Source: an uncultured Acidobacteriaceae bacterium
GTDB lineage: Bacteria; Acidobacteriota; Terriglobia; Terriglobales; Acidobacteriaceae
Reading direction: 5' to 3'
Assembly (NCBI GenBank): GCA_963830635.1
Contig: CAWHMN010000003.1
Location: forward strand, 46,190 to 110,189
DNA length: 64,000 nt
How positions within the stretch are numbered: position 1 is the first letter of the stretch; each line of letters starts with the position of its first letter. The translations under genes and the position numbers were made by a program. The notes below the pieces were generated by a model. It made no database searches, was not told the origin of the DNA, and saw only the letters and a list, made by a program, of their open reading frames with translations. This document shows, one piece after another, positions 26,395 through 50,751 of the stretch.

Positions 26395-27192
26395 ATGACG
26401 GCAAGCAGTGCTGCATGCAGCGTAGAGACTTCCGCGCAACTGCAAGAGACCATCAGGACGCTGGGCCCCTGGTTCCATAATCTGCAAGTCAAGCACATAT
26501 CGACCGCCCCCGACCACTTTCTCGGCGACTTTCCCCGGGTCAAATGGGCCCGGTTCGCCGCGACGATCCCCGCGGATCTCACCGGGCAGAGCGTGCTGGA
26601 CATTGGTTGCAATGGGGGCTTTTACGCCCAGGAGATGAAGAAGCGGGGCGCGGCACGCGTTCTTGGCATCGACAGCGACGAGCGCTATCTGCGGCAGGCG
26701 CGCTTTGCCGCGGAGACGAACGGTTTCGACATCGAATTCCGCAAGACCTCCGTGTATGAGCTGGACGGGCTCACGGAAACCTTCGACATCGTCCTGTTCC
26801 TGGGCGTCTTTTATCACCTGCGCTATCCCCTGTACGCGCTTGACAAGGTGGTGCAGAAGGTCAGGAAGCACCTGCTCTTTCAGTCCCTGATCCGGCCTTT
26901 CCCGGCTAGAGCCGCCAGCCCGCCGCGGGCGGACGAATATGACTTCTGGGAGCAGGCGGTCTTTGAACGCAAGGCGGACTTCCCGCGCATGCACTTCATC
27001 GAGGGCAGGTTCGCGGACGATCCCACCAACTGGTGGCTGCCCAACGTCGCCTGTGCGGAAGCCATGCTCCGCAGCGCCGGGCTGGAGATTCTCAGCCGGC
27101 CGGAAGAAGAGACGTGGTGGTGCGCGCCGACCTCCACGAAGCGTAATGGGCGATTCCTTCAGGAGGCGGAGTTGCGGGGAGAGGTCTGGTGA
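26395..27192 (+). CDS. Class I SAM-dependent methyltransferase, CmoB/DUF1698-like
   Basis: GPWFHNL...GQSVLDIGCNGGFYAQEMKKRGAARVLGIDSD...FDIVLFLGVFYHLRYPL. GGAGAG lies upstream of the ATG. Confidence 0.75.
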   Translation: MTASSAACSVETSAQLQETIRTLGPWFHNLQVKHISTAPDHFLGDFPRVKWARFAATIPADLTGQSVLDIGCNGGFYAQEMKKRGAARVLGIDSDERYLRQARFAAETNGFDIEFRKTSVYELDGLTETFDIVLFLGVFYHLRYPLYALDKVVQKVRKHLLFQSLIRPFPARAASPPRADEYDFWEQAVFERKADFPRMHFIEGRFADDPTNWWLPNVACAEAMLRSAGLEILSRPEEETWWCAPTSTKRNGRFLQEAELRGEVW

Positions 27193-27232
27193 CGGCCGGG
27201 CAAAGCAACACACGAGGGGAAAGGTAGCCGCG

Positions 27233-28177
27233 ATGGTCGAAGCAGTCATGCTGTGGAACGAGCCGAATAACCTGTCGCACTGGAACTTCCAACTGGATCC
27301 GGGCTGGAAGCGCTTTGCCGACATGGTGATCGGAGCATCCGCCGCCATTCGCAGGGTTAACCCTGCGCTCCCTATAGTGCTCGGGGGGGTGTCCTCCTGC
27401 GACTGCGACTTTCTCCGGCTCATGAAGTCTTACGGGGTCATCGAGGCGATCGATGCGGTCGCCGTTCACGGATTTCCCCTGGACTGGAATCACTGGCCGG
27501 TGAACGAGTGGCCGGCGCGGATTGCCGAGGCCGCGGACGTTGCGGGCAAGCCCGTGTGGGTCAGCGAGATCGGTGCTTCTTCCTTCGGGGCGGAAGAGGT
27601 GCAGTTGTTTGGCATGCAGCGCATGCTCCACCTGCTGCGCGGCCGGGTTGAGCGCATTCACTGGTACAGCCTGTTCGATCTTCCGCCTACCTGGCCTGCG
27701 GAAACGCGCCACAAGGAGGCGGAAGGCAGCTCGTACTACCGGCATTACTACCTCGGGCTCCTGGCGCACGACGGCTCTCCCAAGCTTGCCGCCCACGAAT
27801 TCCCCCGCGACGGCGACGTGGGCCTGTGCCAGTGGTTCCACTTTGAAGATCCCCGTCTCGGCCGTGCGGTGGAGTGGATGAAGGCGCATGGCGTCCAGTA
27901 CCTGCGGACCGGCCTGAGCTGGGCGGATTCCTATCGCCCCCACGCGGAGGCCTGGTTCGACCGCCAGATGCGTGCGCTCGCGCCCTTCGACACCACGCTG
28001 ACCCTGTGTTTTACGCCCGAACATCTGGGGCTTGAGGCGCACCACACCAGCCCACCCAACCACAACGCAGATTTTGCCGAGTTTGCGTCCTGGGCCGTCC
28101 GGCGGTATGCCTCGGCCAGTAAGGAGCAGAGCCTTCATCCCATGGAACTGGAAGAGCGAGAGGTAGCAAGCGCATGA
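27233..28177 (+). CDS. GH39-like clan GH-A (beta/alpha)8 hydrolase, apparently circularly permuted
   Basis: It starts 8 aa before the acid/base motif LWNEPNN. The nucleophile-like motif is PVWVSEIGAS. The C-terminal 100 aa (AVEWMKAHGVQYLRTGLSWAD...TLCFTPEHLG...SPPNHNADFAEFASWAVRRY) look like the strands that normally precede NEP. GAGGGGAAAGG lies upstream of ATG 27233. The track extension back to 26939 is Arg-rich junk overlapping the methyltransferase. Confidence 0.65.
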   Translation: MVEAVMLWNEPNNLSHWNFQLDPGWKRFADMVIGASAAIRRVNPALPIVLGGVSSCDCDFLRLMKSYGVIEAIDAVAVHGFPLDWNHWPVNEWPARIAEAADVAGKPVWVSEIGASSFGAEEVQLFGMQRMLHLLRGRVERIHWYSLFDLPPTWPAETRHKEAEGSSYYRHYYLGLLAHDGSPKLAAHEFPRDGDVGLCQWFHFEDPRLGRAVEWMKAHGVQYLRTGLSWADSYRPHAEAWFDRQMRALAPFDTTLTLCFTPEHLGLEAHHTSPPNHNADFAEFASWAVRRYASASKEQSLHPMELEEREVASA

Positions 28178-29298
28178 CCGCAAAGCAGGTACTCATTACC
28201 GGCGGAGCCGGCTTCGTCGGATCGCACCTGGCGGACGGACTTCTCCGCGCGGGGCACTCGGTCCGCATCCTGGATAACCTGACCCCCCAGGTGCATGACA
28301 GCGCCCGGCCGGACTATCTCTCGCCGCAGGTAGAACTGGTCGTCGGAGATGTTCGCGATCGTGACCGGGTGCGGCGGGCCATTGAGGACGTGGATGTCAT
28401 CTTTCACTTCGCGGCTGCCGTCGGTGTGGGCCAGTCCATGTACGAGATCAGCCGCTATATGGAGATCAACACGCAAGGGACCGCTGAATTGCTGCAGGTG
28501 CTGCTGGACAGCCGTCATTCGCTCGAGAAGTTGATCGTGGCCTCCTCCATGTCGATCTATGGGGAAGGGAGTTACCACTGCGCGGCGTGCGACCGTTCCG
28601 TGGCTCCGCCGGTGCGCAAGCCGGAACAGTTGCGCGCAGGCTCCTGGGAGGTCGCGTGTCCGGACTGCGCCGGCGCCCTGGAACCGCGCCCCACGTGTGA
28701 AGACAAGCCCTCGGAACTGACCTCGTTCTATGCCCTTTCCAAGCGGGACCAGGAGGAGATGTGCCTGATCTATGGCCGTACCTACGGGGTGCCGGTGGCC
28801 GCGCTGCGGTTCTTCAATATCTATGGCACGCGCCAGGCTCTATCCAATCCGTATACCGGCGTGGCCGCCATCTTCGCCTCCCGCATGTTGAACAACCAGC
28901 CACCGCTGATCTTCGAGGACGGTGAGCAGATGCGCGACTTCGTGAGCGTGCATGACATCGTCAGAGCCAACTTACTGGCCATGGAACGGCCGGAGGCGGA
29001 CCAGGTCATCCTGAATATCGGTTCGGGGCAACCTATCTCCATCCGGCGCATAGCCGAAGTGCTCTCCAAAGCGCTGGGCAAGGACATGCCTCCGGTCATC
29101 ACGCGCAAGTATCGCGCGGGCGATATCCGCCATTGCTATGCCGATGTGACCCGTGCGCGCGAGGTTCTCGGCTATATTCCGCGCGTCAGCCACGAGGAAG
29201 GTTTTCGTGAACTTGCGGAGTGGCTTGCATCCCAAGAGGCAGAAGACAAGGCAGAGAGGGCGATGCGTGAGCTGACGGCTTACGGCTTATCCGCATAG
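28174..29298 (+). CDS. NAD-dependent epimerase/dehydratase (extended SDR) with 4-Cys zinc-ribbon-like insert
   Basis: ITGGAGFVGSHL; the catalytic YxxxK is probably YALSK. The insert CAAC...x24...CPDC lies at 28579-28668. There is a 4-nt ATGA overlap with the upstream gene. Confidence 0.8.
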   Translation: MTAKQVLITGGAGFVGSHLADGLLRAGHSVRILDNLTPQVHDSARPDYLSPQVELVVGDVRDRDRVRRAIEDVDVIFHFAAAVGVGQSMYEISRYMEINTQGTAELLQVLLDSRHSLEKLIVASSMSIYGEGSYHCAACDRSVAPPVRKPEQLRAGSWEVACPDCAGALEPRPTCEDKPSELTSFYALSKRDQEEMCLIYGRTYGVPVAALRFFNIYGTRQALSNPYTGVAAIFASRMLNNQPPLIFEDGEQMRDFVSVHDIVRANLLAMERPEADQVILNIGSGQPISIRRIAEVLSKALGKDMPPVITRKYRAGDIRHCYADVTRAREVLGYIPRVSHEEGFRELAEWLASQEAEDKAERAMRELTAYGLSA

Positions 29299-29324
29299 CG
29301 AAAGACGAAGGGGGCATGGTATTC

Positions 29325-30464
29325 ATGGCGAGCGAATTGGAACGGCGGGTACTGATCACTGGCGGAGCTGGCTTTATCGGATCGAATTTGGCAGCCTTTC
29401 TGCTGCAGACCACGAACGCCCGCGTCCGCATTCTCGATAATCTCTCTCGCCGGGGCGTGGAACTGAATCTTGCCTGGCTGCGACGTCTGGCCCGCGATTC
29501 CGACCGCCTGCAAATCATCGCCGGCGATGTGCGCGACGCCGGCACTGTCAACGCGGCCTGCGATGGAATCACCGAGATTTACCACTTTGCCGCACAGGTC
29601 GCGGTGACCACCAGCGTGGACGATCCGCGGGAAGATTTCTCCATCAACGCCAAAGGGACCCTGAACGTGCTCGAAGCGGCGCGGGTCCTCGCACGTAAGC
29701 CGATGCTGCTCTTTACGTCCACGAACAAGGTTTACGGCGCGCTGGATGCGCTGCCCGTGCAGACCGGGCCCCGCCGCTGCTTTGTCGCGGACCCGGGCTT
29801 CCGCGGCGTGAACGAACAGACATCGCTCGACTTCCACTCTCCCTACGGCTGCTCGAAGGGCGCGGCGGACCAGTATGTGCGCGACTATGCGCGTATCTAT
29901 GGATTGCCTACGGTTGTCTTCCGCATGTCCTGCATCTGCGGGCCCCGCCAGTTCGGTACCGAGGACCAGGGGTGGGTCGCGCATTTCCTCTACTCCGCGC
30001 TCGCCGGTCGGCCAATCAACATCTACGGCGACGGCAAACAAGTACGCGACGTGCTGCACGTCGACGACCTGATCGCGGCGATGCAGGCTGCGCGGGAGCA
30101 TCTGCCGGTCACCCGGGGGCAGGTGTACAACGTCGGCGGGGGCATGGAGCGGGCGGTCTCCGTGCTCGACATCCTTTCCCGCATCGAGCAACAGACGGGC
30201 CGGCCCTGCTCCCGCGCGCACGGCGAAATGCGGCCCGGCGATCAGCCGTTGTACATCACGGACCACTCCAAGCTCACCCGAGACACGCACTGGCAGCCGC
30301 GGCGATCCGTCGAGCAGACGCTCGCCGACATCCGAAAATTCTGGAATGCCAATCGCGATCTGATCGGCCGTTCGAAGGCGCCGAAGCTGATCTCCGAAGC
30401 GCCTGTCCCTGGAGGGTCTGTCTCTGAAGTCTCGATCGCCGGCCCCAAGGAGCAGGTGGCATGA
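29325..30464 (+). CDS. NAD-dependent epimerase/dehydratase (CDP-paratose/tyvelose 2-epimerase-like SDR)
   Basis: VLITGGAGFIGSNLA...ILDNLSRRGVELNLAWL and YGCSKGAADQY. I preferred ATG 29325 because the AAGGGG spacing is 10 nt. The track start at 29316 has only 1 nt spacing. Confidence 0.8.
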   Translation: MASELERRVLITGGAGFIGSNLAAFLLQTTNARVRILDNLSRRGVELNLAWLRRLARDSDRLQIIAGDVRDAGTVNAACDGITEIYHFAAQVAVTTSVDDPREDFSINAKGTLNVLEAARVLARKPMLLFTSTNKVYGALDALPVQTGPRRCFVADPGFRGVNEQTSLDFHSPYGCSKGAADQYVRDYARIYGLPTVVFRMSCICGPRQFGTEDQGWVAHFLYSALAGRPINIYGDGKQVRDVLHVDDLIAAMQAAREHLPVTRGQVYNVGGGMERAVSVLDILSRIEQQTGRPCSRAHGEMRPGDQPLYITDHSKLTRDTHWQPRRSVEQTLADIRKFWNANRDLIGRSKAPKLISEAPVPGGSVSEVSIAGPKEQVA

Positions 30465-31750
30465 GGTATGCGCTGGTCAACCCGCACTGGTCCTTCGCCG
30501 GTTCCACCTACTTCGGCTGCCAGGAGCCTCACTTTCCTCTCGAGCTGTTATCGGCCGAGCAGTTCCTGCGCAAGGCGGGACATGACACGTTACTGGTCGA
30601 TGCTCACATGGAAGGGCTAAGTGCCTCAGAGGTGCGGGATCGCCTGGAAGGGTTTCGTCAGGACTACCTGGTGATTCCGACAGCGCCTTCCTATCTCTTC
30701 TGGCGCTGCCCACAACCGGAGCTGCGCATTCCGCGCCAGTGGTTCGAAGCCTTGCACAGCTCGGCCATCTCGGTTGCTATCGGTCCTCACGGCTCCGCTA
30801 CGCCGACGGCGACGCTGCGCAAGACCGGCGCCGACGTCGTCCTGCGCGGCGAACCGGATCAGGTGCTGCCTGACCTGGCGACCAAAGCGTGGATCGAGAT
30901 CCCCGGTTGCTATTGGATGGAGAACGGCAAGGTGCACATGAACGCGGGGCTCGGCGTCACCGATATGCGCGCGGTTGAGCCGCTCGACTACCGCGGTTAT
31001 CCGGTGGAGCTGCACACGCACAAGCACCATATCTTTACCGAAGTCGGCGGCCTGGGCGCGGAAGTCGAGTTTGCCCGCGGCTGCCCGTGGTCGTGCTCCT
31101 TCTGCAACAAGACCCTCTTCCGCAACAAGTATCGTGAGCGTAGCGTCGCGGCGGTCATCGAGGAGATCGACCATCTGATCGCGCGGGGCGTCGGATACAT
31201 CTACTTCATTGACGAAATCTTTGGCGTGGGCAGGCAGGTGCGCAGCCTGCTGGAGGCGGTCGCGCAGAGGCCGGTCAGCATCGGCTTCCAGAGCCGCATC
31301 GATCTGTGGGATGAAGACTCGCTTGATCTGCTGGGGCGGGCGCATTGCATCTCCATGGAGTGCGGCATCGAGTCCATTACCGAGGCCGGCCGTGACGAGT
31401 TGAACAAGAACTGCAAGCTTTCCACCGACCGCATCGCAGAGCTGTTGATCTGTGCGCGCGGGCGCATCCCCTGGGTGCAGGCGAATCTCATCAAGACGGC
31501 GAACGACGATCCGGCGCTGGTCGCTGCATGGCAGGCCAAGCTCAAGGCGGCGGGCGTGTGGGTATCCGAGCCCGTTCCCATGTTCCCCTTCCCGGGAAGC
31601 CCGCAATACGTACAGACATTTGGCGCGCAGCCCGACGACACCGCATGGGAGCGGGCGCACGAGTACTACCTCGGCCTGTTCGCCGACAAAGGTTACAGCG
31701 ATATTCAGGAGCAGCACCCTATCCCCCTCGAGGAGCTTGAATGCGTCTGA
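30461..31750 (+). CDS. B12-binding domain / radical SAM protein
   Basis: The N-terminal Rossmann-like B12 domain reads GHDTLLVDAHM...DYLVIPT. The radical SAM cluster motif CPWSCSFC (Cx3Cx2C) lies at 31082-31105. There is a 4-nt overlap with the upstream gene. Confidence 0.85.
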   Translation: MRYALVNPHWSFAGSTYFGCQEPHFPLELLSAEQFLRKAGHDTLLVDAHMEGLSASEVRDRLEGFRQDYLVIPTAPSYLFWRCPQPELRIPRQWFEALHSSAISVAIGPHGSATPTATLRKTGADVVLRGEPDQVLPDLATKAWIEIPGCYWMENGKVHMNAGLGVTDMRAVEPLDYRGYPVELHTHKHHIFTEVGGLGAEVEFARGCPWSCSFCNKTLFRNKYRERSVAAVIEEIDHLIARGVGYIYFIDEIFGVGRQVRSLLEAVAQRPVSIGFQSRIDLWDEDSLDLLGRAHCISMECGIESITEAGRDELNKNCKLSTDRIAELLICARGRIPWVQANLIKTANDDPALVAAWQAKLKAAGVWVSEPVPMFPFPGSPQYVQTFGAQPDDTAWERAHEYYLGLFADKGYSDIQEQHPIPLEELECV

Positions 31751-32883
31751 TGATGACCACCGACGTGGTGGGAGGAGTCTGGACCTATACGCAGGAGCTG
31801 GTCGAAGGCATCATCCGCGAAGGGCATCAGGTCGTCCTTGTCAGCCTGGGACGCGCACCCTCCGGCGAGCAGCGATCGTGGGCTGAGCGTGTATCGCAAG
31901 CGGCGGCGGGCCGGCTCCGCTATGTGCCGACCGAGTTCAAGCTGGAATGGATGCCGGACGGCCACCAGGATATGGAGGAATCGTCCGCGTTCCTGCTCCG
32001 CTTGATTGCCGAAGAGCATCCGGACGTCCTGCACTGCAACCAGTTCTGCTACGGATCGCTGCCATGCGCGGTCCCGCGCGTGGTGGTCGCGCATAGCGAT
32101 GTGGTGAGCTGGTGGCATGGCCGCCATGCCGCTGCGCCGCCCGAAGACGCCTGGTTTGCGTGGTATCGCTCGGTGGTCGGCCACGGGCTTGAGCTCGCCA
32201 ATGCCATCGTCGCGCCGACGGCATGGATGTGCCAGCAACTCACATTGCACTATGGCGTCAGGCGAGCGGAATGTCACGTGATTTCGAATGGACGGCGCGC
32301 GCCCCTCGCCGGCGGCCGGCCTCGCCGTATGCAGGGCATAACCGCGGGCCGGTTGTGGGACGAGGGCAAGAATATCCGTCTGCTCAGTGATGCCTTGCTT
32401 GCCCTGCCGGTGTATGTCGCGGGTGACCGTGGCGGGATAGACAGCGGCGACGCCAGTGCCGCAGCGTCTGGCCAGCCCGGCAAGGCCAATGCGCAGGTGC
32501 ACTTCCTGGGCGCTCTCAGATCCGGCGAACTGCTGGCCCTTATGCAGGAGAGCGTCATGTACATCGGCACGTCCATCTACGAGCCCTTCGGCCTTGCCCC
32601 TCTGGAGGCGGCGCTTGCCGGGTGTGCGCTGGTGCTGAGCGACATCCCGTCCTTCCGTGAAGTGTGGGCGGACACGGCAGTGTTCTTCGATGCCCGGGAT
32701 GCGCATGCGCTCGCCCGCGCCGTCAACGGACTGGTCGAGGATCCGGAACGGCTTCATCAGCTCGCAGCCGCGGCCCAGGCCCGGGCGGCCCAATTGTATG
32801 CAGCCGAAACAATGACTGCCCGGTATCTGGAGCTGTATGCCAGGGTCCGATCAAACGCGGAAGAGGGCGCCTTTGCGGCGTAA
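31741..32883 (+). CDS. Glycosyltransferase family 4 (GT-B fold)
   Basis: GGVWTYTQELVEGIIREGHQVVLVS and YEPFGLAPLEAALAGCALVLSDIPSFREV (EX7E-type region). It overlaps the radical SAM gene by 10 nt. Confidence 0.8.
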   Translation: MRLMMTTDVVGGVWTYTQELVEGIIREGHQVVLVSLGRAPSGEQRSWAERVSQAAAGRLRYVPTEFKLEWMPDGHQDMEESSAFLLRLIAEEHPDVLHCNQFCYGSLPCAVPRVVVAHSDVVSWWHGRHAAAPPEDAWFAWYRSVVGHGLELANAIVAPTAWMCQQLTLHYGVRRAECHVISNGRRAPLAGGRPRRMQGITAGRLWDEGKNIRLLSDALLALPVYVAGDRGGIDSGDASAAASGQPGKANAQVHFLGALRSGELLALMQESVMYIGTSIYEPFGLAPLEAALAGCALVLSDIPSFREVWADTAVFFDARDAHALARAVNGLVEDPERLHQLAAAAQARAAQLYAAETMTARYLELYARVRSNAEEGAFAA

Positions 32884-33979
32884 ACTGCGCATTGCTTTCT
32901 TTGCTCATTCCTTCCGGTCGGACTGGAATAACGGCAACGCGCATTTCCTGCGCGGGCTCGCCCGGGAACTCGGCAAGCTGGGGCACGCCGTCACCTGCTA
33001 CGAGCAGATGGATGGCTGGTCCTACACCAACCTGGTCGCGGAGGAGCAGGAACGCGGAGACGCATCGCTCAGGACATTCGCTACCACCTATCCTGACCTG
33101 CAGGTTGAGCTGCTGAACGGCAGTGACGGAGAGCTACGCGCCGCCTTGCGAAGCGCCGATATCGCCCTGGTGCATGAATGGCATACGCCCGGGATGATCG
33201 CCGATCTCCTGGCGGCCCGCGAGGGACTGCCGTGCAAACTGCTCTTCCACGATACGCATCACCGCGCCTCCAGCTCACCGGAACAGATCCGCCTGCTGCA
33301 GGTGCAACGCTTCGATGGCGTTGTGGCGTTCGGTGAAGCGTTGCGAGCGATCTACCGCGAACGCTTCGGCCTGAGCCGCGTATGGACGCTGCACGAAGCC
33401 GCGGATACGACCATCTTCTTCCCGCAGGAGCGTAAGAAGAGCATCGACGTGGTCTGGGTGGGGAACTGGGGAGACAACGAGCGCAGCCAGGAGCTCTGCG
33501 AATATCTGGTCGAGCCCGCTCGCCGCTTGCAACGATACAAATTCCAGGTGCACGGCGTGCGATATCCCACGGAAGCACGCGCGGCCCTCAGGAGTGCCGG
33601 GATCGCCTTCTGTGGATATCTTCCTAACCTGAGTGCGCCGGCGGTATACGACGCATCCCGGCTGACTCTGCATGTCCCGCGCCAGCAATACTCCGGCGCG
33701 ATGGTGGGTATCCCGACCATCCGTGTCTTTGAGGCCTTGGCCGCGGGCGTTCCGCTGATCTCGGCACCGTGGAGCGATGCCGAGAGCCTCTTCCGCCCGC
33801 AGGACTTCCGCCGCGTGAACAGCGGGGCGGAGATGACCATGGCGATTCGGAATCTGCTGGAGGACGGCGCGGCGGCGGCGCAGATGGCTGAGGCGGGACT
33901 TGAGACAGTGCGCGCGCGCCACACCTGCCGCCACCGTGCCGAGGAGTTCACCGGGATCTGCGAGGAAGTACTGGCATGA
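32837..33979 (+). CDS. CgeB-like glycosyltransferase-fold protein, paralog 1
   Basis: SDWNNGNAHFLRGLARELGKLGH N-terminus, VVWVGNWGDNER, and C-terminal TIRVFEALAAGVPLIS. It is paralogous to the next two genes. ATG 32837 gives a 47-nt overlap with the GT4 gene, and no alternative start exists downstream before the conserved N-terminus. Confidence 0.65.
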   Translation: MPGSDQTRKRAPLRRKLRIAFFAHSFRSDWNNGNAHFLRGLARELGKLGHAVTCYEQMDGWSYTNLVAEEQERGDASLRTFATTYPDLQVELLNGSDGELRAALRSADIALVHEWHTPGMIADLLAAREGLPCKLLFHDTHHRASSSPEQIRLLQVQRFDGVVAFGEALRAIYRERFGLSRVWTLHEAADTTIFFPQERKKSIDVVWVGNWGDNERSQELCEYLVEPARRLQRYKFQVHGVRYPTEARAALRSAGIAFCGYLPNLSAPAVYDASRLTLHVPRQQYSGAMVGIPTIRVFEALAAGVPLISAPWSDAESLFRPQDFRRVNSGAEMTMAIRNLLEDGAAAAQMAEAGLETVRARHTCRHRAEEFTGICEEVLA

Positions 33980-35070
33980 ATATCTTTGTCTTTGGTTCCA
34001 GCATCGTGTCTTCCTACTGGAACGGCGCGGCCACCTATTACCGGGGCATCTACAAGGCGCTCCATGCTCTCGGACACCGCGTGACATTCGCCGAACCCGA
34101 CGCCTACGGGCGCCAGCAGAAGCGCGATGCCGGGGATTACTCCTACGTGCACTCGCTGGTGTACGCGCCGGGGCGCGACCTGAATGCGATGCTGCGGCTT
34201 GCGAGCCGGGCGGACCTGGTCATCAAGCACAGCGGCATTGGCGTCGATGACGAGGAGTTGGAACTACGCGTGCTCGAGTGCCAGCCGCAGGCGTCCGTCA
34301 TCTTCTGGGATGTGGATGCGCCCGCGACCATCGCCCGCATGAATGAGTATCCGCAGGATGCATTTCCGAGGGCCATTCCACGGTATGACGCCATCCTGAC
34401 CTATGGCGGCGGCCCGGAGATCGAACGGCATTATCGCTCCTATGGCGCACGCGCGTTCGCCAGCATCTACAACGGATTGGACTCTGACACGCACCACCCC
34501 GTCGCGCCGGACCCGTCCCTCAAATGCGATCTCGCGTTCATCGGCAACCGTCTTCCGGACCGCGAGCGCCGCGTGGAGGATCTGTTTCTTGCAGCGGCGC
34601 AGCAGGCGCCCGAGAAGCAGTTCCTGTTAGGTGGAGAGGGCTGGGGCGACAAGCCGCTGCCGCCGAACGTGCGCTGGATCGGGCACGTGCCGACGACCGA
34701 CCACAACCGCGTGAACTGCTCGGCCGCCATGGTGCTGAATATCAACCGCGCATCCATGGCCAGCTTCGGCTTCTCTCCACCTACCCGTGTGTTTGAGGTC
34801 GCAGGCAGCGGATCGTGTCTCCTGTGCGATGATTGGCCGGGCGTCGAAGAGTGCTTCGAGCCCGGGAGGGAGATACTCATCATTCGCTCCGCTGCCGATG
34901 TCGTCGATTGCCTCCGCAGCCACGATCGGAGGTCGGCTGCCGCTCTCGGGCAAGCGCTGCGTGCGCGTGCGCTGCGCGACCACACCTATACGCAGCGCGC
35001 CAGGGTGCTGGATGCTCTCCTGAGCAGCAACTTCCGCTCCTGCGAGCTGGTCGAGAGGGAGCCGGCATGA
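33976..35070 (+). CDS. CgeB-like glycosyltransferase-fold protein, paralog 2
   Basis: SSYWNGAATYYRGIYKALHALGH, LAFIGNRLPDRERR and PTRVFEVAGSGSCLLCD. There is a 4-nt overlap at each end. Confidence 0.7.
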   Translation: MNIFVFGSSIVSSYWNGAATYYRGIYKALHALGHRVTFAEPDAYGRQQKRDAGDYSYVHSLVYAPGRDLNAMLRLASRADLVIKHSGIGVDDEELELRVLECQPQASVIFWDVDAPATIARMNEYPQDAFPRAIPRYDAILTYGGGPEIERHYRSYGARAFASIYNGLDSDTHHPVAPDPSLKCDLAFIGNRLPDRERRVEDLFLAAAQQAPEKQFLLGGEGWGDKPLPPNVRWIGHVPTTDHNRVNCSAAMVLNINRASMASFGFSPPTRVFEVAGSGSCLLCDDWPGVEECFEPGREILIIRSAADVVDCLRSHDRRSAAALGQALRARALRDHTYTQRARVLDALLSSNFRSCELVEREPA

Positions 35071-36170
35071 AGATTGTCATCCTGGGACTCACGCTCTCGT
35101 CTTCCTGGGGCAACGGGCACGCCACCACCTATCGCTCCCTGTGCCGGGCACTGCACGCGCGCGGCCACGCGATCACGTTCATTGAAAAAGACGTGCCCTG
35201 GTATCGCGAGCATCGCGATCTCCCCCATCCGTCCTACTGCGCGCTGCGCCTTTACAGCAACTGGCGGGACGAAGAACGCAGAGTCCTGCGCGAGGCGGCA
35301 GAGGCCGATGTCACGATCGTCGGCTCCTATTTCCCCGACGCGATCGCGGCCGCAGATGCTCTCTTTGCTGCTGACCGCGCACCGGTGCTCTTCTATGACA
35401 TCGACACGCCTATCACCGTTGCTGCGCTGCGTGCGCACGGTCAGGCCGATTACATCGACGCTGCGCAGATCCCCAACTATCACGCCTACCTGAGTTTTAC
35501 CGGCGGTCCCATACTGCGGGAGCTGGAAGCGCGTTTCGGCTCGCCCCTGGCCGCGCCGCTCTACTGTTCGGTCGATCCCGCGGCGCATCAGCGCACGCCT
35601 GTCCGTGCCGAGTTCAGGAGCGATCTCAGTTATCTCGGCACGTATGCTGCCGATCGCCAGCCCAAGCTGATGAGATTGCTCAATGGCGCCGCGGCACAAC
35701 TGCCGCACGCGCGCTTTGTCGTGGCGGGTCCCATGTATCCGCAGGAGATCGCATGGGCGCCGAATGTGCATCGCCTTAATCATGTACCTCCGCCGCAGCA
35801 TGCCAGCTTCTACTCGTCGTCGCGCTTCTCCCTGAACCTGACGCGCCAGGAGATGGTCTATGCCGGCTACTCGCCCTCCGTCCGGCTCTTTGAGGCCGCG
35901 GCCTGCGGAGCGGCTGTCATCTCCGACGCGTGGCGCGGCATGGAAGGCTTCTTCACTCCGGGCGAGGAGATACTCCTGGCCGAGAGCGACTCCGATGTCA
36001 TCGGCTATCTCTCCCATACCACGGATCAAGAGATCCACTCGATCGGCAGCCGTGCGCGCGAACGCGTGCTCGCGCACCATACGGCCGATTGCCGCGCCAT
36101 TGAATTCGAGGACATCGTCGCCGCCCCCTCCGGCAGTCGAACACGTATGGCTGCGACGGCTGCGGTCTAG
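35067..36170 (+). CDS. CgeB-like glycosyltransferase-fold protein, paralog 3
   Basis: SSSWGNGHATTYRSLCRALHARGH, LSYLGTYAADRQPK and SVRLFEAAACGAAVISD. The start is ATG 35067 (ATGA overlap), not the track start at 34833. Confidence 0.7.
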   Translation: MKIVILGLTLSSSWGNGHATTYRSLCRALHARGHAITFIEKDVPWYREHRDLPHPSYCALRLYSNWRDEERRVLREAAEADVTIVGSYFPDAIAAADALFAADRAPVLFYDIDTPITVAALRAHGQADYIDAAQIPNYHAYLSFTGGPILRELEARFGSPLAAPLYCSVDPAAHQRTPVRAEFRSDLSYLGTYAADRQPKLMRLLNGAAAQLPHARFVVAGPMYPQEIAWAPNVHRLNHVPPPQHASFYSSSRFSLNLTRQEMVYAGYSPSVRLFEAAACGAAVISDAWRGMEGFFTPGEEILLAESDSDVIGYLSHTTDQEIHSIGSRARERVLAHHTADCRAIEFEDIVAAPSGSRTRMAATAAV

Positions 36171-36264
36171 CGCGGCAGATTACTGCAACGAGCAGGCTTC
36201 CTGAGCGCTGTAAAAGGCAGGGCGGGGATGTGTTCGCGAAATCGCTATGGTGGGAGACACAAAC

Positions 36265-37719
36265 ATGCACCAGGAGGCGCTACTGCCCACTGCCGACGAG
36301 CGGGCTGAGCTCTGGAGCGAGCTGATCGCTCTGGTCGAAGCCTACATCGTCGAGGTCGAGACGCTTCCCGTTGCGCCGCCCCTCGATCAGAATGCGATGC
36401 GCCGCATCCTGCAGTCGTTCTCCTTCGATGAGCCGGGCGGACGGGTGGACGTGTTGCGACGGTTCACCGGAGAGATGACCGCGAATCAGGTGCACACGCC
36501 GCATCCCTGCTACTTCGGCCTGTTCAATCCTGCACCTGCGTTCATGGGGGTGATGGGCGACGCCGTTGCGGCCGCCCTGAACCCTCAGCTTGCCGCATGG
36601 AGCCATAGTCCGCTCGCTGTGGAGACCGAACGCTACCTGGTGCACGCGTTCGCGGAGAGGTTTGGTCTCGGGAGGGGCGCCGATGGCGTGTTCACCAGCG
36701 GTGGAGCAGAAGCGAACCAGACCGCGCTGGTGTGCGCGCTACACCATCGCTGGCCGGCGATGGCGAAGGAAGGTATAAGTGCGGCACCGCGGCACCCGGT
36801 CTTCTATGCGTCGGCGGAGAGCCACCATTCGTTTCTCAAGGCTGCCCGGGTAGCTGGCCTGGGCGAGCGCGCGCTGCGCACCGTGCCGGTGAATGCAGAT
36901 CTGCGCATGGATACATCGGCTCTGCGTGCGATGCTGCAGGAAGACCGCGAGGCAGGACGGGAGCCGTTCCTGCTGGTCGCGACAGCCGGCACTACGGGCG
37001 CCGGCGTCATCGATCCGTTGGCGGAACTCGCAACAATTGCACAAGAGCAGGGTCTCTGGCTGCACGTGGATGCTGCCTGGGGTGGCGCGGCGATGCTGGT
37101 GCCTGAGCTGCGGGCCCACTTCGACGGCATCCAGCAGGCGGGCTCGATCACGTTCGATCCACACAAATACCTCTCCGTACCTATGGGTGCGGGCATGTTC
37201 CTCACCCGGCATGCGTCGATACTGTCCGATGTCTTTGCCGTGCACACCGCGTACATGCCCAGGGAAGCGCAGCGGCTCGCCATCGTCGATCCCTACGAAC
37301 ACTCGTTGCAGTGGTCGCGGCGATTCGCCGGACTGAAGCTCTTCCTGTCGCTCGCGACTGCCGGATGGCAAGGGTATGAAGGCGTGTTGCGGCATCAGGC
37401 GCGGATGGGCGACCTTCTCCGTGAGCGGCTGGAGCAGGAGGGATGGAGGATTGTGAACCGGACGCCTCTGCCCTTGGTGTGCTTCACGCCTGCGGACGAA
37501 CACTGGGATATGGCTGCACACCAGCGCGCTGCCGATGCAGTCACGGCATCGGGCCGGGCGTGGATCTCGACCATCTTGCTCAAGGACGAGATCCCCGCGC
37601 TGCGTGCCTGCATCACCAACTACCGCACAGAACCGCGGCATATCGAAATCCTGATCGAAACGCTGCGGCAGGCAAGAGACTCGAAGGCGTCAGCAGAATC
37701 TGTCACCCGCCGGAACTAA
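36265..37719 (+). CDS. Group II pyridoxal-phosphate-dependent decarboxylase
   Basis: SGGAEANQTAL and the PLP-lysine motif ITFDPHKYLSVPMGAGMF. I preferred ATG 36265 (GGGAGA 7 nt upstream); the alternative is ATG 36247. Confidence 0.8.
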   Translation: MHQEALLPTADERAELWSELIALVEAYIVEVETLPVAPPLDQNAMRRILQSFSFDEPGGRVDVLRRFTGEMTANQVHTPHPCYFGLFNPAPAFMGVMGDAVAAALNPQLAAWSHSPLAVETERYLVHAFAERFGLGRGADGVFTSGGAEANQTALVCALHHRWPAMAKEGISAAPRHPVFYASAESHHSFLKAARVAGLGERALRTVPVNADLRMDTSALRAMLQEDREAGREPFLLVATAGTTGAGVIDPLAELATIAQEQGLWLHVDAAWGGAAMLVPELRAHFDGIQQAGSITFDPHKYLSVPMGAGMFLTRHASILSDVFAVHTAYMPREAQRLAIVDPYEHSLQWSRRFAGLKLFLSLATAGWQGYEGVLRHQARMGDLLRERLEQEGWRIVNRTPLPLVCFTPADEHWDMAAHQRAADAVTASGRAWISTILLKDEIPALRACITNYRTEPRHIEILIETLRQARDSKASAESVTRRN

Positions 37720-38417
37720 GTCCGCGGCGAATCTCCCGCGAGCAGGTATTCGAGAGAGCGAACGCACCAGGTGGGCGACTCGGCTCGAAGCTCGGCTTCT
37801 CCGAAGATGCCGGTCGCCACGGCGATCACATCCAGCCCATTCTCCCGCGCTGCCTGGATATCGGACGGGGTGTCGCCGACCACACAGATGCTCGCGCTGG
37901 GCGCTGTCCGCCTCTTTGCCTGCTCTACCGCGGCGCGGAAGATATCGTGACGGTATTCGTAACGGTCGCTGAACGCTCCGAAATGGAAGAGGCCGCGCAA
38001 CCCGCTTCGCTCGAGCTTCAACCAGCCGATCGCTTCGAGATTGCCGGTCGCAACGCCGAGCACCGCGCCCTTGGCCGCCAGATGCTCCAGCACCGCTGCC
38101 GCTCCCGCAGTTGCCTCGGCTTTCATGTCCGCCTGGGCCGCATGCACGAAGCTGCACATCTCCGTTGCGGCCCGGGCCAGATGCGGCCGCCACCTCTCCT
38201 CCGCCACTGCATGCAATCTGAGCGCATCGCGGAGAATACCTATGTCAGTATTGCCGTGCACTCGCACGCCATCCAGGTTGAGCGGTCTGCCGGCGAGCCC
38301 GGTCAAAGCCTGACAGAACGCGAAGTAGTGCACCGCATCGCGGCAGTTCAGCAGCGTGCCGTCGATATCGAACAGATAGGCGTCATATTCGTCCCACTTC
38401 CGCGTTCCGTTCAGCAT
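37716..38417 (-). CDS. HAD-superfamily hydrolase (phosphatase, PGP/beta-PGM-like)
   Basis: Motif I YLFDIDGTLL and a late motif VVGDTPSDIQAA. The convergent stop codons overlap (CTAA at 37716-37719). I set the start at ATG 38417 (the alternative is 38429), overlapping the upstream GT9 stop. Confidence 0.75.
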   Translation of the reverse strand: MLNGTRKWDEYDAYLFDIDGTLLNCRDAVHYFAFCQALTGLAGRPLNLDGVRVHGNTDIGILRDALRLHAVAEERWRPHLARAATEMCSFVHAAQADMKAEATAGAAAVLEHLAAKGAVLGVATGNLEAIGWLKLERSGLRGLFHFGAFSDRYEYRHDIFRAAVEQAKRRTAPSASICVVGDTPSDIQAARENGLDVIAVATGIFGEAELRAESPTWCVRSLEYLLAGDSPRT

Positions 38418-39502
38418 GCCGCCCCGCATACCGTATCCAACTGCCGTTCTACTGCGTGGATCACGTCCTCCCATGCTCCTACTCGCCGCTGACGGAAGAT
38501 GCGCATGGTCGGATACCAGGGCGAGTCCGCGCGATCGATCATCCAACGCCAGTCGGCCGCGTACTGCAGCAACAGCCAGACCGGCTTCCCCATCGCGCCG
38601 GCCAGGTGGGCTGCCATGGTATCGACGGTGATGACGAGATCCAGATGCTCCATGACGGCGGCCAGGGTCAGCAAGCCGTCACCGTAATCGGATGCGTCGT
38701 GAAGGCGATATCGCTCGCGTATCTGCGTCCACGCCACGTTATCCTCCGCTCCCTGCAGGCTGTAGAAGCTGGCGTCTGTACGGACGAGGAGGGGCTCCAG
38801 CAGCGGTAGGGGAATCACTCGCGATCGATTCCACTGGTCGCATCCCCACACCAGGCCGATGCGCGGGCGCGGGTTCCTCTGTGCCATCGCTCGGCCGATG
38901 GTTGCAGCCAATCTTCGCGGCGCAGTGATGTATGGACATGCGCGCGGAATGGTCGCAGCCTGGGTGCGGAAGATATAAGGGAGTTCAGTGATCTCCGCCT
39001 CTATATCCGCCCCAGACACAGCATCCCAGCATGCCGGCTCCTGCCCCCACGGCATAATTTTGACACTCGGCTCGTCCATGCCCGCAGCACAGCGCAACAG
39101 GTCCACCAGCCTGGGCGACACCTGCAGCATCAACGCAGCGGCGTCTTTGCGAATGCATGGAGCGTAGCGGATGCACTGGATCGCGTCTCCGAAGCCATGC
39201 AGGCTCCGCACCAGCACACGTTTGCCGGTGAAGCTCGATCCGTTCCACAGCCGATGCGGATCCGGCGCGCCGCGCCTGCGAATCGCGTCGCTTTCCTGCC
39301 ACGCACGCTCCATCTCGCCAAGCAGCATCCAGCATAACCATCGGCTGCCCGCGCAGCGGTCTGGATCCGCACCGGCGGCTTCCGCCACGCCGAGCGCATG
39401 CAGGCAATTTTCGACCTCGCGCGCCGCAAGCAATGCCTCTGCATGCTCCAATAGCGCATCTGCGTGATGTTCATCCGTCGCGCGCGTAGCGTTTCCCCTC
39501 AC
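38411..39502 (-). CDS. Glycosyltransferase family 9-like protein (heptosyltransferase fold) with helical N-terminal region
   Basis: VLVRSLHGFGDAIQCIRYAP, RIGLVWGCDQWN and LVITVDTMAAHLAGAMGKPVWLLL are GT9-type motifs. Confidence 0.7.
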   Translation of the reverse strand: MRGNATRATDEHHADALLEHAEALLAAREVENCLHALGVAEAAGADPDRCAGSRWLCWMLLGEMERAWQESDAIRRRGAPDPHRLWNGSSFTGKRVLVRSLHGFGDAIQCIRYAPCIRKDAAALMLQVSPRLVDLLRCAAGMDEPSVKIMPWGQEPACWDAVSGADIEAEITELPYIFRTQAATIPRACPYITAPRRLAATIGRAMAQRNPRPRIGLVWGCDQWNRSRVIPLPLLEPLLVRTDASFYSLQGAEDNVAWTQIRERYRLHDASDYGDGLLTLAAVMEHLDLVITVDTMAAHLAGAMGKPVWLLLQYAADWRWMIDRADSPWYPTMRIFRQRRVGAWEDVIHAVERQLDTVCGAAC

Positions 39503-41293: not shown

Positions 41294-41498
41294 AGAGAAA
41301 GCTCCTTACGCGGTTTGATGCGAAGATGGCGGCCAAACGGCCGCGCAGAGAGGGGTCATGCCGACCCACAACCAAAGTTGAATTGTAGCGCAGCGAACAA
41401 GCTGCTACCGTCTCCCTCAAACCGGGCTGCCGACCGGCAATGCCGGCGGCAGGGTGCAGAGCGGCCAGAGACACCAGCGAGGCGAGAGAACATTGACC

Positions 41499-43289
41499 AT
41501 GATGAACCGGCGGGAGTTTCTAGGTCAGGCACTCGCGTGCTCCGCGGCGGCCGGCCTCGCTGCCGCATGGCCGCGCTCCGTTGCGGCATCCATTCCGGCC
41601 AGCAGCCGGCCGGCAGGCACCGCGCACCGCGCCTCCGTGGTGGACTTCGGCGCTGACCCCACAGGCGTGCGCGATGTAACCGATGCCGTCGATCGCGCCA
41701 TTGCGTCACTGGCGCTCCACGAGGCGCGCCTCGTCTTTCCGCCGGGCAGGTACAACTTCGCCGCCTCTGATAACTGCGCCATGTCCTTCCGCAACTACAA
41801 CGGCCTGGAAGTCTTCGGCAACGGCGCGGAGTTGATCTTTAACGGCAACACGCGGCCCTTCCTGCTGAGCGCCTGCCGCGACGTGGAGATCCACGATATC
41901 AAGATCGATTGGGCACGGCCGCCGTTTTCGCAGGGAACCGTAGCGGCTGTCGCGCAAGGGAATCCGCCGTCGTTCACCGTAGTGCTCGACCCCGAGTTTC
42001 CGGCGGAGGGAGTAGAGGCGGTCGAGTCCCTGACCGAGTATGACGCCAGGACCGGCCTTCCCGCGGCGAGTGGGCTGGATGAGACCGGCGTCATCCGCTC
42101 CGTACGTCTGTCGGCTCCGCAGACGCTGATGCTGGAGTGCTCCCGGCCGATGGCGGTGAAGCCGGGCATGCGTCTCGTCCTGCGGCATCGCATTACACCC
42201 GATGCGTGCATCTATCTCGAGGCGTGCAATACCGTCCTGCTTGAGAGCGTGGCCATCTTTGCCGGCCCGGGCAACGGTGCTGTGCTGCACGGCTGCCGCG
42301 ATGTCTCGCTTGAAGACTTCAGCGTGACGCCCCGGCCGCAGTCCAAACGCTGGCTCTCACTGTGTGGCCGTGGCGTGCAGATGGTGGGCTGCGAGGGCGC
42401 TGTCGCCATCAAGCGCAGTCAATTCAAAGGCACCGGGGAGGACGCATTGCGCATCTTCCAGCCCTACTGGAAGATCGGCAGCCGCGTGGATGAGACCACG
42501 GTGATTCTAGAAGGGGCAGGGAAGCAGGCGCTGCCGCTGTGGCAACTTCCCTCGGACGGCACGATCCTGCAACTCACGGATGCCGCCAACCTCAGCCTGC
42601 TGGGCGAGATCGCCGTCGCTTCCTGCGAGAACACGCCCGCAGGCACCAGGCTTTCCTTTACCGAGACGCTCTCGCCGGTCATCAAGCCCGGAACGCTGGT
42701 ATGCAGCGTGCTGAAGCAGGCGCGCGCCACCATCGACCATTGCAGCTTTGCCGGCAACCGCGGCAAGGGCGTGGTGGCCCACGCTCGTACCCGCATCGTG
42801 AACAGCCGCTTTCATGGCTGCTCCGGCGCGGCCATCCAGTTCGCCGCCGATCCGGTAGCCATGGCCGGCCCGGTGGTGCAGAGCGTCAGCGTCACTGACT
42901 CCAGCTTCGACCTTTGCAACTACGGCGCTCCGGATGGGCGCCGTGGCGCCATCACGGTGGGCAACGCGCAAAACACGCCGATGGCCGGCGTGCCGGCGCA
43001 GCGCATCAATCAGGGCGTGACGCTGAGCCGCAACCTCATCGCCAACGTGACCGGGCCGGCCATCGATTGCGCCGACGCCTCATGGCTCACCATCGAGGGC
43101 AACACCTTCGGCCGCTGCGATGGGGCGGCGCGTTCCGGCGACAAGCCCCGCGCCATCGTGCTGCGCAACGTCGCCCAGTCGCAGATCGACGGCAATCAGT
43201 CCAAGCTGCCGCAGCAGATCGTGCTGATCGGCTGCGCGGACACCGCAGTCGCCGTGAATAACGCACCCATGGTCGCGGTGAAAGCGTAG
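41499..43289 (+). CDS. Tat-signal right-handed parallel beta-helix protein (pectate-lyase-superfamily / GH28-like)
   Basis: Twin-arginine signal MMNRREFLGQALACSAAAG. VVDFGADPTGVRDVTDAVDRAI is typical of the pectate-lyase-3 N-terminus. Repetitive beta-helix-like segments follow. Confidence 0.65.
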   Translation: MMNRREFLGQALACSAAAGLAAAWPRSVAASIPASSRPAGTAHRASVVDFGADPTGVRDVTDAVDRAIASLALHEARLVFPPGRYNFAASDNCAMSFRNYNGLEVFGNGAELIFNGNTRPFLLSACRDVEIHDIKIDWARPPFSQGTVAAVAQGNPPSFTVVLDPEFPAEGVEAVESLTEYDARTGLPAASGLDETGVIRSVRLSAPQTLMLECSRPMAVKPGMRLVLRHRITPDACIYLEACNTVLLESVAIFAGPGNGAVLHGCRDVSLEDFSVTPRPQSKRWLSLCGRGVQMVGCEGAVAIKRSQFKGTGEDALRIFQPYWKIGSRVDETTVILEGAGKQALPLWQLPSDGTILQLTDAANLSLLGEIAVASCENTPAGTRLSFTETLSPVIKPGTLVCSVLKQARATIDHCSFAGNRGKGVVAHARTRIVNSRFHGCSGAAIQFAADPVAMAGPVVQSVSVTDSSFDLCNYGAPDGRRGAITVGNAQNTPMAGVPAQRINQGVTLSRNLIANVTGPAIDCADASWLTIEGNTFGRCDGAARSGDKPRAIVLRNVAQSQIDGNQSKLPQQIVLIGCADTAVAVNNAPMVAVKA

Positions 43290-50711: not shown

Positions 50712-50751
50712 CAAAAAAGAAGGCCCGGACAGCAACAATGCTGACCGGGCC
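50712..50751 (-). terminator. Rho-independent terminator of ferritin-like gene B
   Basis: On the minus strand, a 12-bp stem with one A-A mismatch (ggcccgg-a-cagca / tgctg-a-ccgggcc) is followed by ttcttttttga. Confidence 0.6.

Follow-up and report, generated by a model that had tools for sequence, protein, structure and literature searches.

Two curated protein families, TIGR04290 for S-adenosylmethionine (SAM)-dependent methyltransferases and TIGR04295 for B12-type radical SAM proteins, mark a gene cassette whose existence is already recorded in databases. Both families are graded 'hypothetical equivalog', that is, curated families without an assigned function, and the Joint Genome Institute (JGI) uses the name 'B12-binding domain/radical SAM domain protein of rhizo-twelve system' for relatives of the radical SAM protein. 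No publication on this cassette was found in the literature outside subscription journals. Here we describe a copy lying at positions 26395-39502 of a 64,000-nucleotide stretch (referred to as the window) of contig CAWHMN010000003.1 (assembly GCA_963830635.1) from an uncultured Acidobacteriaceae bacterium. Its genes are numbered g01 to g12 (Table 1). Both markers score above their cut-offs: g01 matches TIGR04290 with 340.8 bits (cut-off 300, model positions 1-226), and g05 matches TIGR04295 with 630.4 bits (cut-off 400) over the full model, 1-422, the next family being BchE at 85 bits. An earlier note on this DNA, made from the letters alone, had suggested, as a point to be verified, that curated hidden Markov model (HMM) families pair a methyltransferase of this kind with a B12-type radical SAM protein, and this proved right. 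With the window copy this uncharacterised system gains a new member. The copy shares gene order and core content with the 'rhizo-twelve' cassette and differs in being reduced, in carrying the methyltransferase gene at its head and in having a gene for a pyridoxal phosphate (PLP)-dependent decarboxylase inserted. In our reading, to which we give a probability of about one half, the locus is a copy of this TIGR04290/TIGR04295 cassette and its pathway, which runs in the cytoplasm or on the inner side of the membrane, yields a small, soluble glycoside or oligosaccharide.

Several described systems share features with the cassette. The mycobacterial pathways for methylmannose polysaccharide (MMP) and methylglucose lipopolysaccharide (MGLP) likewise combine soluble glycosyltransferases, SAM-dependent methyltransferases and a chain-length-controlling hydrolase, are wholly cytoplasmic and have no exporter, and in the MGLP pathway a phosphatase acts on a phosphorylated primer. 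In contrast to the cassette, they have no radical SAM enzyme, epimerase pair or CgeB-like transferases; the likeness is in logic only, and no sequence relationship was seen, no comparison aimed at one having been made. Systems in which a GT4 glycosyltransferase is paired with a phosphatase (MshA in mycothiol synthesis, sucrose-phosphate synthase and its phosphatase), and also the phosphatidylinositol mannosyltransferase PimA, resemble the cassette in that its GT4 gene adjoins a gene for a HAD or a histidine phosphatase, and in that an inositol-3-phosphate synthase gene is part of the Azospirillum and Bradyrhizobium cassettes and lies beside the Sorangium copy. They differ from it in that the similarity is weak (PimA 37 bits, MshA 27 bits, both with g06) and in that no synthase gene lies near the acidobacterial copies. 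A classical Wzx/Wzy- or ATP-binding cassette (ABC)-dependent locus for exopolysaccharide (EPS) or O-antigen is a different matter: the earlier note had denied that the locus is of this kind, and indeed neither the cassette nor the 64-kb window as a whole contains a Wzx/Wzy, outer membrane polysaccharide export (OPX) protein, polysaccharide co-polymerase (PCP) or priming transferase, and no priming transferase, flippase or exporter, polymerase, chain-length regulator or OPX protein was found in those related loci that were read gene by gene.

The conserved core and an inserted decarboxylase

A pattern scan that took one genome per GTDB species found relatives of g05 in at least 591 genomes, a number that is a lower bound. 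The 80 best loci, most of them from metagenome bins, were compared with the window by tblastn, and 47 of these have 10 kb on both sides (called full-length below). All nine genes g01-g09 occurred in the same order in 36 of the 47 full-length loci, and each of them was found in 40 to 47 loci of this set. Since the core is colinear across more than 80 genomes, the arrangement must be selected and is not a product of chance. As judged from these alignments, the conserved unit is nine genes, encoding the methyltransferase, a GH39-like protein, a GalE-like and a TyvE-like short-chain dehydrogenase/reductase (SDR), the radical SAM protein, the GT4 glycosyltransferase and three CgeB-like proteins. 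The suggestion that the radical SAM protein and the methyltransferase anchor a conserved multi-gene cassette is thus borne out by the neighbourhood comparison, which shows co-conservation across phyla. Between families and phyla the core proteins share 60-73% identity, and their order is fixed. Carriers were identified in Acidobacteriota, Alpha- and Betaproteobacteria, Myxococcota and probably Verrucomicrobiota. Copies of the acidobacterial type (about 70-73% identity in the radical SAM protein, same layout) were also seen in bins labelled Acetobacteraceae, Verrucomicrobiae, Vulcanimicrobiota and Janthinobacterium (L006, L010, L018, L038, L041, L047, L070), and these odd host labels may reflect either horizontal transfer or mis-binned contigs.

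In the commonest layout g09 is followed, in convergent orientation, by genes for the HAD phosphatase, the GT9-like protein, the methyltransferase, a sugar-1-phosphate nucleotidyltransferase and a fourth CgeB-like protein. The last two, which belong to the full 'rhizo-twelve' layout, were seen in 29 of the 80 loci, and neither was detected by tblastn in the 64-kb window, whose layout, with the methyltransferase gene at the head, is of a less common type. Homologs of the HAD gene g11 were present in 31 and those of the GT9-like gene g12 in 36 of the 47 full-length loci. On this distribution the pair is a frequent accessory, which in the Acidobacteriaceae belongs to the system, as had been proposed for the convergent pair of the window. 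A distant acidobacterial lineage (47% identity in the radical SAM protein) has the bare nine-gene core and then unrelated genes. The window copy is a reduced variant made up of the coupled core g01-g09, the convergent HAD/GT9-like pair and one unrelated inserted decarboxylase gene, i.e. of 11 system genes and one unrelated gene.

The earlier note had described the ten + strand genes as one block. Nine of these do form a conserved operon, but the tenth, g10, is an unrelated insertion. It encodes a true PF00282 protein (219.9 bits) with the DPHK lysine motif, and no homolog was found in any of the approximately 90 related loci, the 47 full-length ones included. In locus L086, where the radical SAM protein is 92% identical to that of the window and the same kinase and GGDEF genes lie upstream, the decarboxylase gene is absent, and the 3' ends of g09 and the HAD gene overlap by 4 nt, with nothing between them. 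In L002 the HAD gene follows g09 after about 60 nt, again with no decarboxylase gene between. The nearest homologs of g10 (at most 67% identical) have a TetR regulator or an acetyltransferase gene as neighbour and no cassette. Because the gene is absent from the related loci, including L086, and its nearest homologs lie in unrelated neighbourhoods, g10 is, by this comparison, a local, lineage-specific insertion outside the conserved system. The inserted segment, 36171-37719, consists of the gene and a 76-nt spacer, and no repeat or mobile-element gene was seen there. With g10 recognised as an insertion, the idea of an 'amine-decorated' product has no basis.

Nine plasmid records carry more distant versions of the cassette, with 46-51% identity in the radical SAM protein; they come from Azospirillum, Bradyrhizobium sp. 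195 (two copies), Tistrella and a Geminicoccaceae strain. A divergent operon with overlapping junctions, present in three Azospirillum species, encodes an inositol-3-phosphate synthase, a histidine phosphatase, the TIGR04290 methyltransferase and a 'beta-xylosidase', which is the ortholog of g02. In both copies of Bradyrhizobium sp. 195 the same synthase and histidine phosphatase genes head a 15-gene operon, which also holds the fourth CgeB-like gene, the nucleotidyltransferase gene and genes for a true phosphopentomutase (510 bits) and a third SDR resembling UDP-xylose synthase. The histidine phosphatase stands in place of the HAD phosphatase in the alphaproteobacterial cassettes. In Sorangium an inositol-phosphate synthase gene lies directly after the cassette. 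The Sorangium synthase is of a different type from that of Azospirillum and Bradyrhizobium; thus recruitment of the enzyme took place in at least two separate phyla.

Some further features of these versions are recorded here as observations. A two-helix membrane protein of the DUF1003 family is encoded beside the cassette in Azospirillum and Sorangium (58% identity; L081, 18178-18780; L094, 15772-16374; L090, 6742-7314). It is the only recurrent membrane protein near the system and is absent from the window and the acidobacterial loci. A CDP-alcohol phosphatidyltransferase near the Sorangium copy was considered as a clue to an inositol lipid and rejected, as it is the phosphatidylserine synthase PssA. 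Upstream of the Bradyrhizobium sp. 195 synthase gene, at a distance of about 50 nt, there is a perfect motif of an EcfG-type general-stress promoter (GGAAC-N16-CGTT; L082, 2039-2063; L085, 3026-3050). The two sites are in paralogous copies and count as one observation; in the other loci one-mismatch sites are all that was seen, at a frequency close to chance. The idea of a stress island, raised by genes for Ku, LigD, Mn catalase, ferritin-like proteins, TreZ and terminal oxidases near the alphaproteobacterial copies (L083-L085), was dropped, as no such recurrence was seen around the 80 acidobacterial-type loci. Genes for Ku and two ferritin-like proteins are also found in the window, 10-24 kb from the cassette (2682-3614; 49564-51827).

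In several genomes neighbouring cassette genes are fused, by which, to judge from the sequences, neighbouring steps are tied together. The methyltransferase is fused to the GT9-like protein (P0224, 14 member sequences), the second SDR to the radical SAM protein, the radical SAM protein to the GT4 enzyme (P0243), and a GH39-like domain to the TyvE-like SDR (see below). These fusions suggest an order of action in which the epimerases would be followed by the radical SAM enzyme and then by the GT4 enzyme, with the methyltransferase acting alongside the GT9-like enzyme. In the degenerate relative L092 only a radical SAM-like gene, whose product has lost the cluster cysteines, and the GT4 gene remain. 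Because of this remnant and the P0243 fusion, the GT4 enzyme g06 is the probable closest functional partner of the radical SAM protein.

Predicted functions of the encoded proteins

The family assignments of the earlier note were upheld in HMM searches with all 12 proteins; the GT9-like protein scored at the 22-bit Pfam cut-off, and GT9 structures came first in the fold search. The methyltransferase g01 also matches PF08003 (DUF1698) with 62 bits, and the sugar O-methyltransferase EvdMO1 and WbdD are among its nearest solved relatives. Its homologs were found in 40 of the 47 full-length loci, either at the head or at the tail of the cassette.

The second protein, g02, has only a weak match to PF11790 (Glyco_hydro_cc, 25 bits) and none to the Pfam GH39 model. 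Its best solved match is PslG, the Pseudomonas GH39 exopolysaccharide hydrolase, at 21 bits only. In this alignment g02 residues 3-128 correspond to PslG 132-268, and residues 200-231 to PslG 26-57. Tistrella and the Geminicoccaceae strain lack a separate g02 and encode a 682-residue protein (L083, 9956-12004; L084, 9950-12004) in which a GH39-like domain is followed by a TyvE-like SDR. Residues 16-114 of this fusion match g02 197-293, and residues 120-307 match g02 5-194. Because the order of the segments is swapped relative to both PslG and the fusion protein, g02 and its orthologs in Acidobacteria, Azospirillum and Bradyrhizobium are predicted to be circularly permuted barrels, the unpermuted order being kept in the Tistrella/Geminicoccaceae fusion. 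The strands of g02 do not follow the canonical (beta/alpha)8 order. The candidate acid/base Glu10 (in the motif NEP) is kept in 80 of 81 orthologs and the candidate nucleophile Glu112 in all 81; both align with the catalytic glutamates of PslG, and they are retained in permuted and unpermuted forms alike. Unlike PslG, g02 has no anchor. The median identity of its orthologs to the window protein is 72.5%.

For g03 the best solved match is the UDP-glucose 4-epimerase 4zrm (1.7e-45), and the match is split, around residues 135-172, by an insertion of about 40 residues (approximately 133-172) that follows the catalytic serine and is common to all orthologs (median identity to the window protein 71.5%). 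Four cysteines of the insertion (C136, C139, C162 and C165, in a CxxC...CxxC arrangement) are kept in about 67-70 of 81 orthologs and may form a zinc ribbon; the alphaproteobacterial insertions are without these cysteines. The other SDR, g04, matches structures of the CDP-tyvelose 2-epimerase TyvE (1orr, 2.9e-75, 257 bits; 9rl0, 7.2e-74), with the next SDR at 117 bits. According to a structural paper of 2026 (PMC13098431), the hallmarks of TyvE-like enzymes are a TNK segment, a Thr/Tyr/Lys triad, a Gln loop, two phosphate-binding arginines and a VAM segment. The corresponding segments of g04 are STNKVYG, YGCSK, RQFGTEDQGW, QVRD and RPGDQ, and VAM reads VAV. It differs from TyvE also in its context, which has no 3,6-dideoxyhexose pathway, and in the fusion to a GH39-like domain in some genomes. 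Both genes had been called 'epimerase/dehydratases' in the earlier note: the two proteins are indeed extended SDRs, but the dehydratase TDE signature is in neither, and by their motifs (SSMSIYG, GalE-like, in g03; STNK, TyvE-like, in g04) both are of the epimerase type. In Azospirillum brasilense and A. argentinense (L081, L094) a single SDR gene lies between the divergent promoter and the radical SAM gene, and the TyvE-like gene is missing; thus the 2-epimerase is dispensable in some hosts. A. lipoferum has both genes.

The radical SAM protein g05 has the cluster motif CPWSCSFC (CxxxCxxC, C208-x3-C212-x2-C215) and an N-terminal Rossmann-like domain of the B12 type. Its AlphaFold2 (AF2) model (mean confidence score, pLDDT, 71) matches TsrM, OxsB, MgmA and AprD4 at 15-19% identity and aligns over the full length with TsrM and OxsB. 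These solved relatives span methylases (TsrM, MgmA), the ring-contracting OxsB and the cobalamin-free sugar diol-dehydratase AprD4. With class B radical SAM enzymes in general (the methylases GenK/GenD1 and Fom3; OxsB; AprD4) g05 shares the two-domain fold and the cluster motif; it differs from them in its low identity to the solved members and in forming a compact family of its own. At E<=1e-30 a search covering 1.84 billion cluster representatives gave 190 hits, most of which are fragments; there are about eight full-length clusters at 50% identity, one of which contains Sorangium proteins only. A DxHxxG-like string is present (D47-A-H-M-E-G), and its histidine is not conserved among relatives. 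The median identity of orthologs to the window protein is 70.8%, and the gene sits directly between the sugar-nucleotide SDR genes and a glycosyltransferase gene. Two cysteines outside the cluster motif, C83 and C296, are retained also by relatives with no more than about 30% identity. C83 is within the most conserved motif of the family, PSYLFWRC, in a low-confidence loop of the model, and may have a catalytic or cofactor-contact role. An auxiliary Fe-S cluster in the N-terminal domain (C20/C83/C150) was considered and rejected, C150 being Leu in most relatives.

Of the glycosyltransferases, g06 matches PF13439 and PF00534 (GT4), and its only full-length solved matches are to PimA (2.7e-8). 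With a median identity of 41% it is the least conserved core protein. The three CgeB-like proteins g07, g08 and g09 match PF13524 with 109.7, 123.5 and 129 bits, respectively, and each has position-specific orthologs across phyla; the orthologs of g07 in Bradyrhizobium and Azospirillum, for example, show 45-49% identity to it as against about 25% to the other paralogs. A search of solved structures with the family profile gave no relative of the CgeB-like proteins, only spurious matches to designed proteins. The phosphatase g11 matches HAD_2 with 60 bits and has the DIDGT motif. The match of g12 to PF01075 (22.0 bits) covers 32 residues, and its profile found nothing better than E 0.24 in the PDB. 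The AF2 model of g12 (pLDDT 90.6) was compared with known structures by Foldseek: the GT9 structure 3tov and the lipopolysaccharide (LPS) heptosyltransferases WaaF and WaaC were the top matches, at TM-scores of 0.5-0.56 and 12% identity, followed by TibC and OGT. The model has an N-terminal three-helix extension resembling tetratricopeptide repeats (TPR). No homolog of g12 was found in the alphaproteobacterial, Sorangium and minimal versions of the cassette.

Layout and surroundings of the window copy

All 12 open reading frames described earlier for 26395-39502 were found again at the same coordinates by a sequence check, as were the six overlaps between genes and the motifs CPWSCSFC and DPHK (Table 1).

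Table 1. Genes of the cassette, with positions in the 64,000-nucleotide window
Gene	Position	Strand	Predicted product and remarks
g01	26395..27192	+	SAM-dependent methyltransferase, TIGR04290 family (DUF1698/CmoB-like Rossmann core)
g02	27233..28177	+	GH39/PslG-like (clan GH-A) TIM-barrel, putatively circularly permuted, predicted cytoplasmic
g03	28174..29298	+	GalE-like SDR of the nucleoside diphosphate (NDP)-sugar 4-epimerase type, insertion of about 40 residues with four Cys
g04	29316..30464	+	CDP-tyvelose 2-epimerase-like (TyvE-like) SDR
g05	30461..31750	+	B12-binding-domain radical SAM protein, TIGR04295 family
g06	31741..32883	+	GT4 glycosyltransferase
g07	32837..33979	+	CgeB-like GT-B paralog 1; start 32837 (ATG) or 32873 (TTG)
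g08	33976..35070	+	CgeB-like GT-B paralog 2
g09	35067..36170	+	CgeB-like GT-B paralog 3; closes the conserved + strand operon
g10	36247..37719	+	group II PLP-dependent decarboxylase; lineage-specific insertion between g09 and the HAD gene
g11	37716..38429	-	HAD-superfamily phosphatase; start 38417 or 38429
g12	38411..39502	-	GT9-like GT-B glycosyltransferase; start of the database entry at about 39433

Four of the junctions are ATGA overlaps of 4 nt (28174/28177, g02/g03; 30461/30464, g04/g05; 33976/33979, g07/g08; 35067/35070, g08/g09). The g05/g06 overlap is 10 nt long (31741/31750), and that of g06/g07 is 47 nt (32837/32883), or 11 nt if g07 starts at the TTG codon. Between g01 and g02 there is a gap of 40 nt, which carries the ribosome-binding site GGGGAAAGG in front of the ATG start of g02 at 27233, and between g03 and g04 the gap is 17 nt. 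Because g10 follows g09 after a gap of 76 nt, it is not translationally coupled. At its other end it overlaps the HAD gene tail to tail by 4 nt. The 7-nt overlap of g12 and g11 (ATGCTGA) indicates that the convergent pair is translationally coupled too.

The statement that none of the 12 products has a transmembrane helix agrees with a 19-residue Kyte-Doolittle scan, in which no product showed a membrane-helix-like segment; this is a crude hydropathy test and not SignalP or TMHMM. The histidine kinase and the GGDEF protein encoded just upstream scored as membrane proteins in the same scan. These two genes, and efp and apt downstream, are conserved with the cassette only within the same genus. 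A gene pair for an ABC ATPase and an HlyD-type protein (13881-16105), 10 kb upstream, is not conserved in related loci. Rfam searches gave no riboswitch or other RNA in the 430-nt region upstream of g01; the sole match in the window, a tRNA at 20021-20093, lies 6 kb upstream of the cassette and is not conserved with the system. Promoter and terminator scans of the locus were uninformative, with counts at or below shuffle expectation. At 41454-43289, 2 kb past the cassette, there is a gene for a 611-residue right-handed beta-helix (pectate-lyase-like) protein, which is not conserved with the system.

Proposed pathway, alternatives and significance

The envisaged pathway would start from an NDP-hexose of the cell pool, epimerised at C4 by g03 and at C2 by g04. 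Radical tailoring of the nucleotide sugar, or of the first glycoside, would be catalysed by g05; C-methylation is the commonest precedent, and dehydration or rearrangement are possible. The GT4 enzyme g06 would then move the sugar onto a phosphorylated acceptor, presumably inositol phosphate in those lineages where the cassette encodes the synthase, and the phosphatase would strip the phosphate. The chain could be lengthened by the three CgeB-like transferases and the GT9-like enzyme and O-methylated or capped by the methyltransferase, and the cytoplasmic GH39-like enzyme may trim or transglycosylate the product. The inositol link comes from the operon in which the synthase and histidine phosphatase genes are joined to those for the methyltransferase and the GH39-like protein, from the synthase gene beside the Sorangium copy, and from the fact that the acceptor of PimA is an inositol ring. 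No exporter, flippase, polymerase or priming transferase is linked to the cassette in approximately 90 loci from at least four phyla, and the phosphatases are soluble; taken together, these observations favour a product that is retained in the cell.

Several points weigh against this reading. All steps of the pathway are inferred. Transferases of the LPS core (GT9) and of phosphatidylinositol mannoside (PIM) synthesis (GT4) lack membrane helices yet use membrane acceptors, thus the absence of transmembrane segments does not prove that the product is soluble, and the membrane evidence itself comes from the hydropathy scan only. PslG-type GH39 enzymes normally process exopolysaccharide. Of the solved structures, the one closest in sequence to g05 is that of AprD4, a diol dehydratase that works without cobalamin; the fold assigned to g05 is right, but the reaction cannot be inferred from the sequence. 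The match between the GT4 enzyme and PimA is weak, and no inositol-phosphate synthase gene was found in the window or within 10 kb of the 80 acidobacterial-type loci.

Some of these points would fit the main alternative, which we regard as possible but rather doubtful, namely that the cassette works at the inner leaflet and makes a glycoconjugate that is anchored in the membrane or belongs to the envelope, such as a PIM-like inositol glycolipid, a decoration of the LPS core or lipid A, or a hopanoid glycoside, with lipid synthesis, flipping and export encoded elsewhere. PimA and WaaC-type enzymes, the former the only full-length solved match of g06 and the latter, with WaaF, structural neighbours of g12, are just those that reach membrane acceptors without helices, all identified hosts are diderm soil bacteria, and the DUF1003 membrane protein adjoins the cassette in Azospirillum and Sorangium; processing of exopolysaccharide by PslG-type enzymes points in the same direction. 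In contrast, no acyltransferase, inositol CDP-alcohol transferase, flippase, ABC/OPX exporter or ligase is linked to the cassette in the approximately 90 loci, the CDP-alcohol transferase encoded close to the Sorangium cassette being PssA. Moreover, the GH39-like protein has neither signal peptide nor anchor in the hydropathy scan, unlike the periplasmic PslG, and the succession of a synthase and a soluble phosphatase in Azospirillum and Bradyrhizobium points to free inositol or to a soluble glycoside phosphate rather than to a lipid intermediate.

It is quite improbable that the CgeB-like and GT9/TPR-like enzymes glycosylate cytoplasmic proteins. CgeB is tied to glycosylation of the Bacillus spore crust, and the g12 model, with its TPR-like extension, resembles the protein heptosyltransferase TibC and bacterial OGT, but a conserved candidate substrate protein was found neither in nor beside the cassette in any layout, g12 is missing from the alphaproteobacterial, Sorangium and minimal versions, and in such a system a phosphatase, an inositol-phosphate synthase and a glycoside-hydrolase-like enzyme would be unexpected. 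That the genes make a secondary metabolite for secretion, a cyclitol or an aminoglycoside-like compound, seems very unlikely as well, even though inositol-phosphate synthase, NDP-sugar SDRs, glycosyltransferases and a B12-type radical SAM enzyme are ingredients of aminoglycoside clusters, g05 has weak NCBIfam matches to the AprD4 type in addition to its solved match, and Sorangium is a prolific producer. Against it stand the lack of a conserved aminotransferase, resistance gene, regulator and exporter, the fact that the only PLP enzyme is the non-conserved insertion g10, and the high identity of the core and its fixed order across families and phyla, unlike what is seen in fast-diversifying antibiotic clusters.

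Returning to a soluble product retained in the cell, a more far-reaching form of this reading can be proposed only tentatively: the cassette might make cytoplasmic glycosides or oligosaccharides of a class not described before and common among soil bacteria, assembled on a phosphorylated primer (in Proteobacteria and Myxococcota, inositol phosphate), with a new TIGR04295 reaction on a nucleotide sugar and a permuted GH39-like trimming enzyme or transglycosylase. Such a product would be a counterpart of the plant protectants of the galactinol/raffinose type or of the polymethylated protectants of mycobacteria.

We located no source that gives the nine-gene core, leaves out the decarboxylase, assigns g04 to the TyvE-like enzymes or reports the permuted barrel, the fusions or the recurrent inositol-phosphate synthase. 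The experimental target is narrowed to nine genes, and a misleading tenth is removed. The predicted C2 and C4 epimerases acting on NDP-hexose, the putative inositol-phosphate acceptor and the pairing of the radical SAM protein with the GT4 enzyme offer testable hooks, and cultivable carriers (Azospirillum, Bradyrhizobium, Sorangium, Acidisarcina, Terriglobus) make experiments feasible. TIGR04295 is a family of B12-type radical SAM proteins without an assigned reaction, present in at least several hundred species, many of them abundant soil or plant-associated bacteria, and the degree of core identity across phyla, together with the fixed gene order, points to a product under strong selection. 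Identification of this product would extend the known radical SAM reactions on carbohydrates by a new one and give the CgeB-like trio a first function outside Bacillus spores, and it might bring to light a new glycan or protectant within the cells of soil bacteria.

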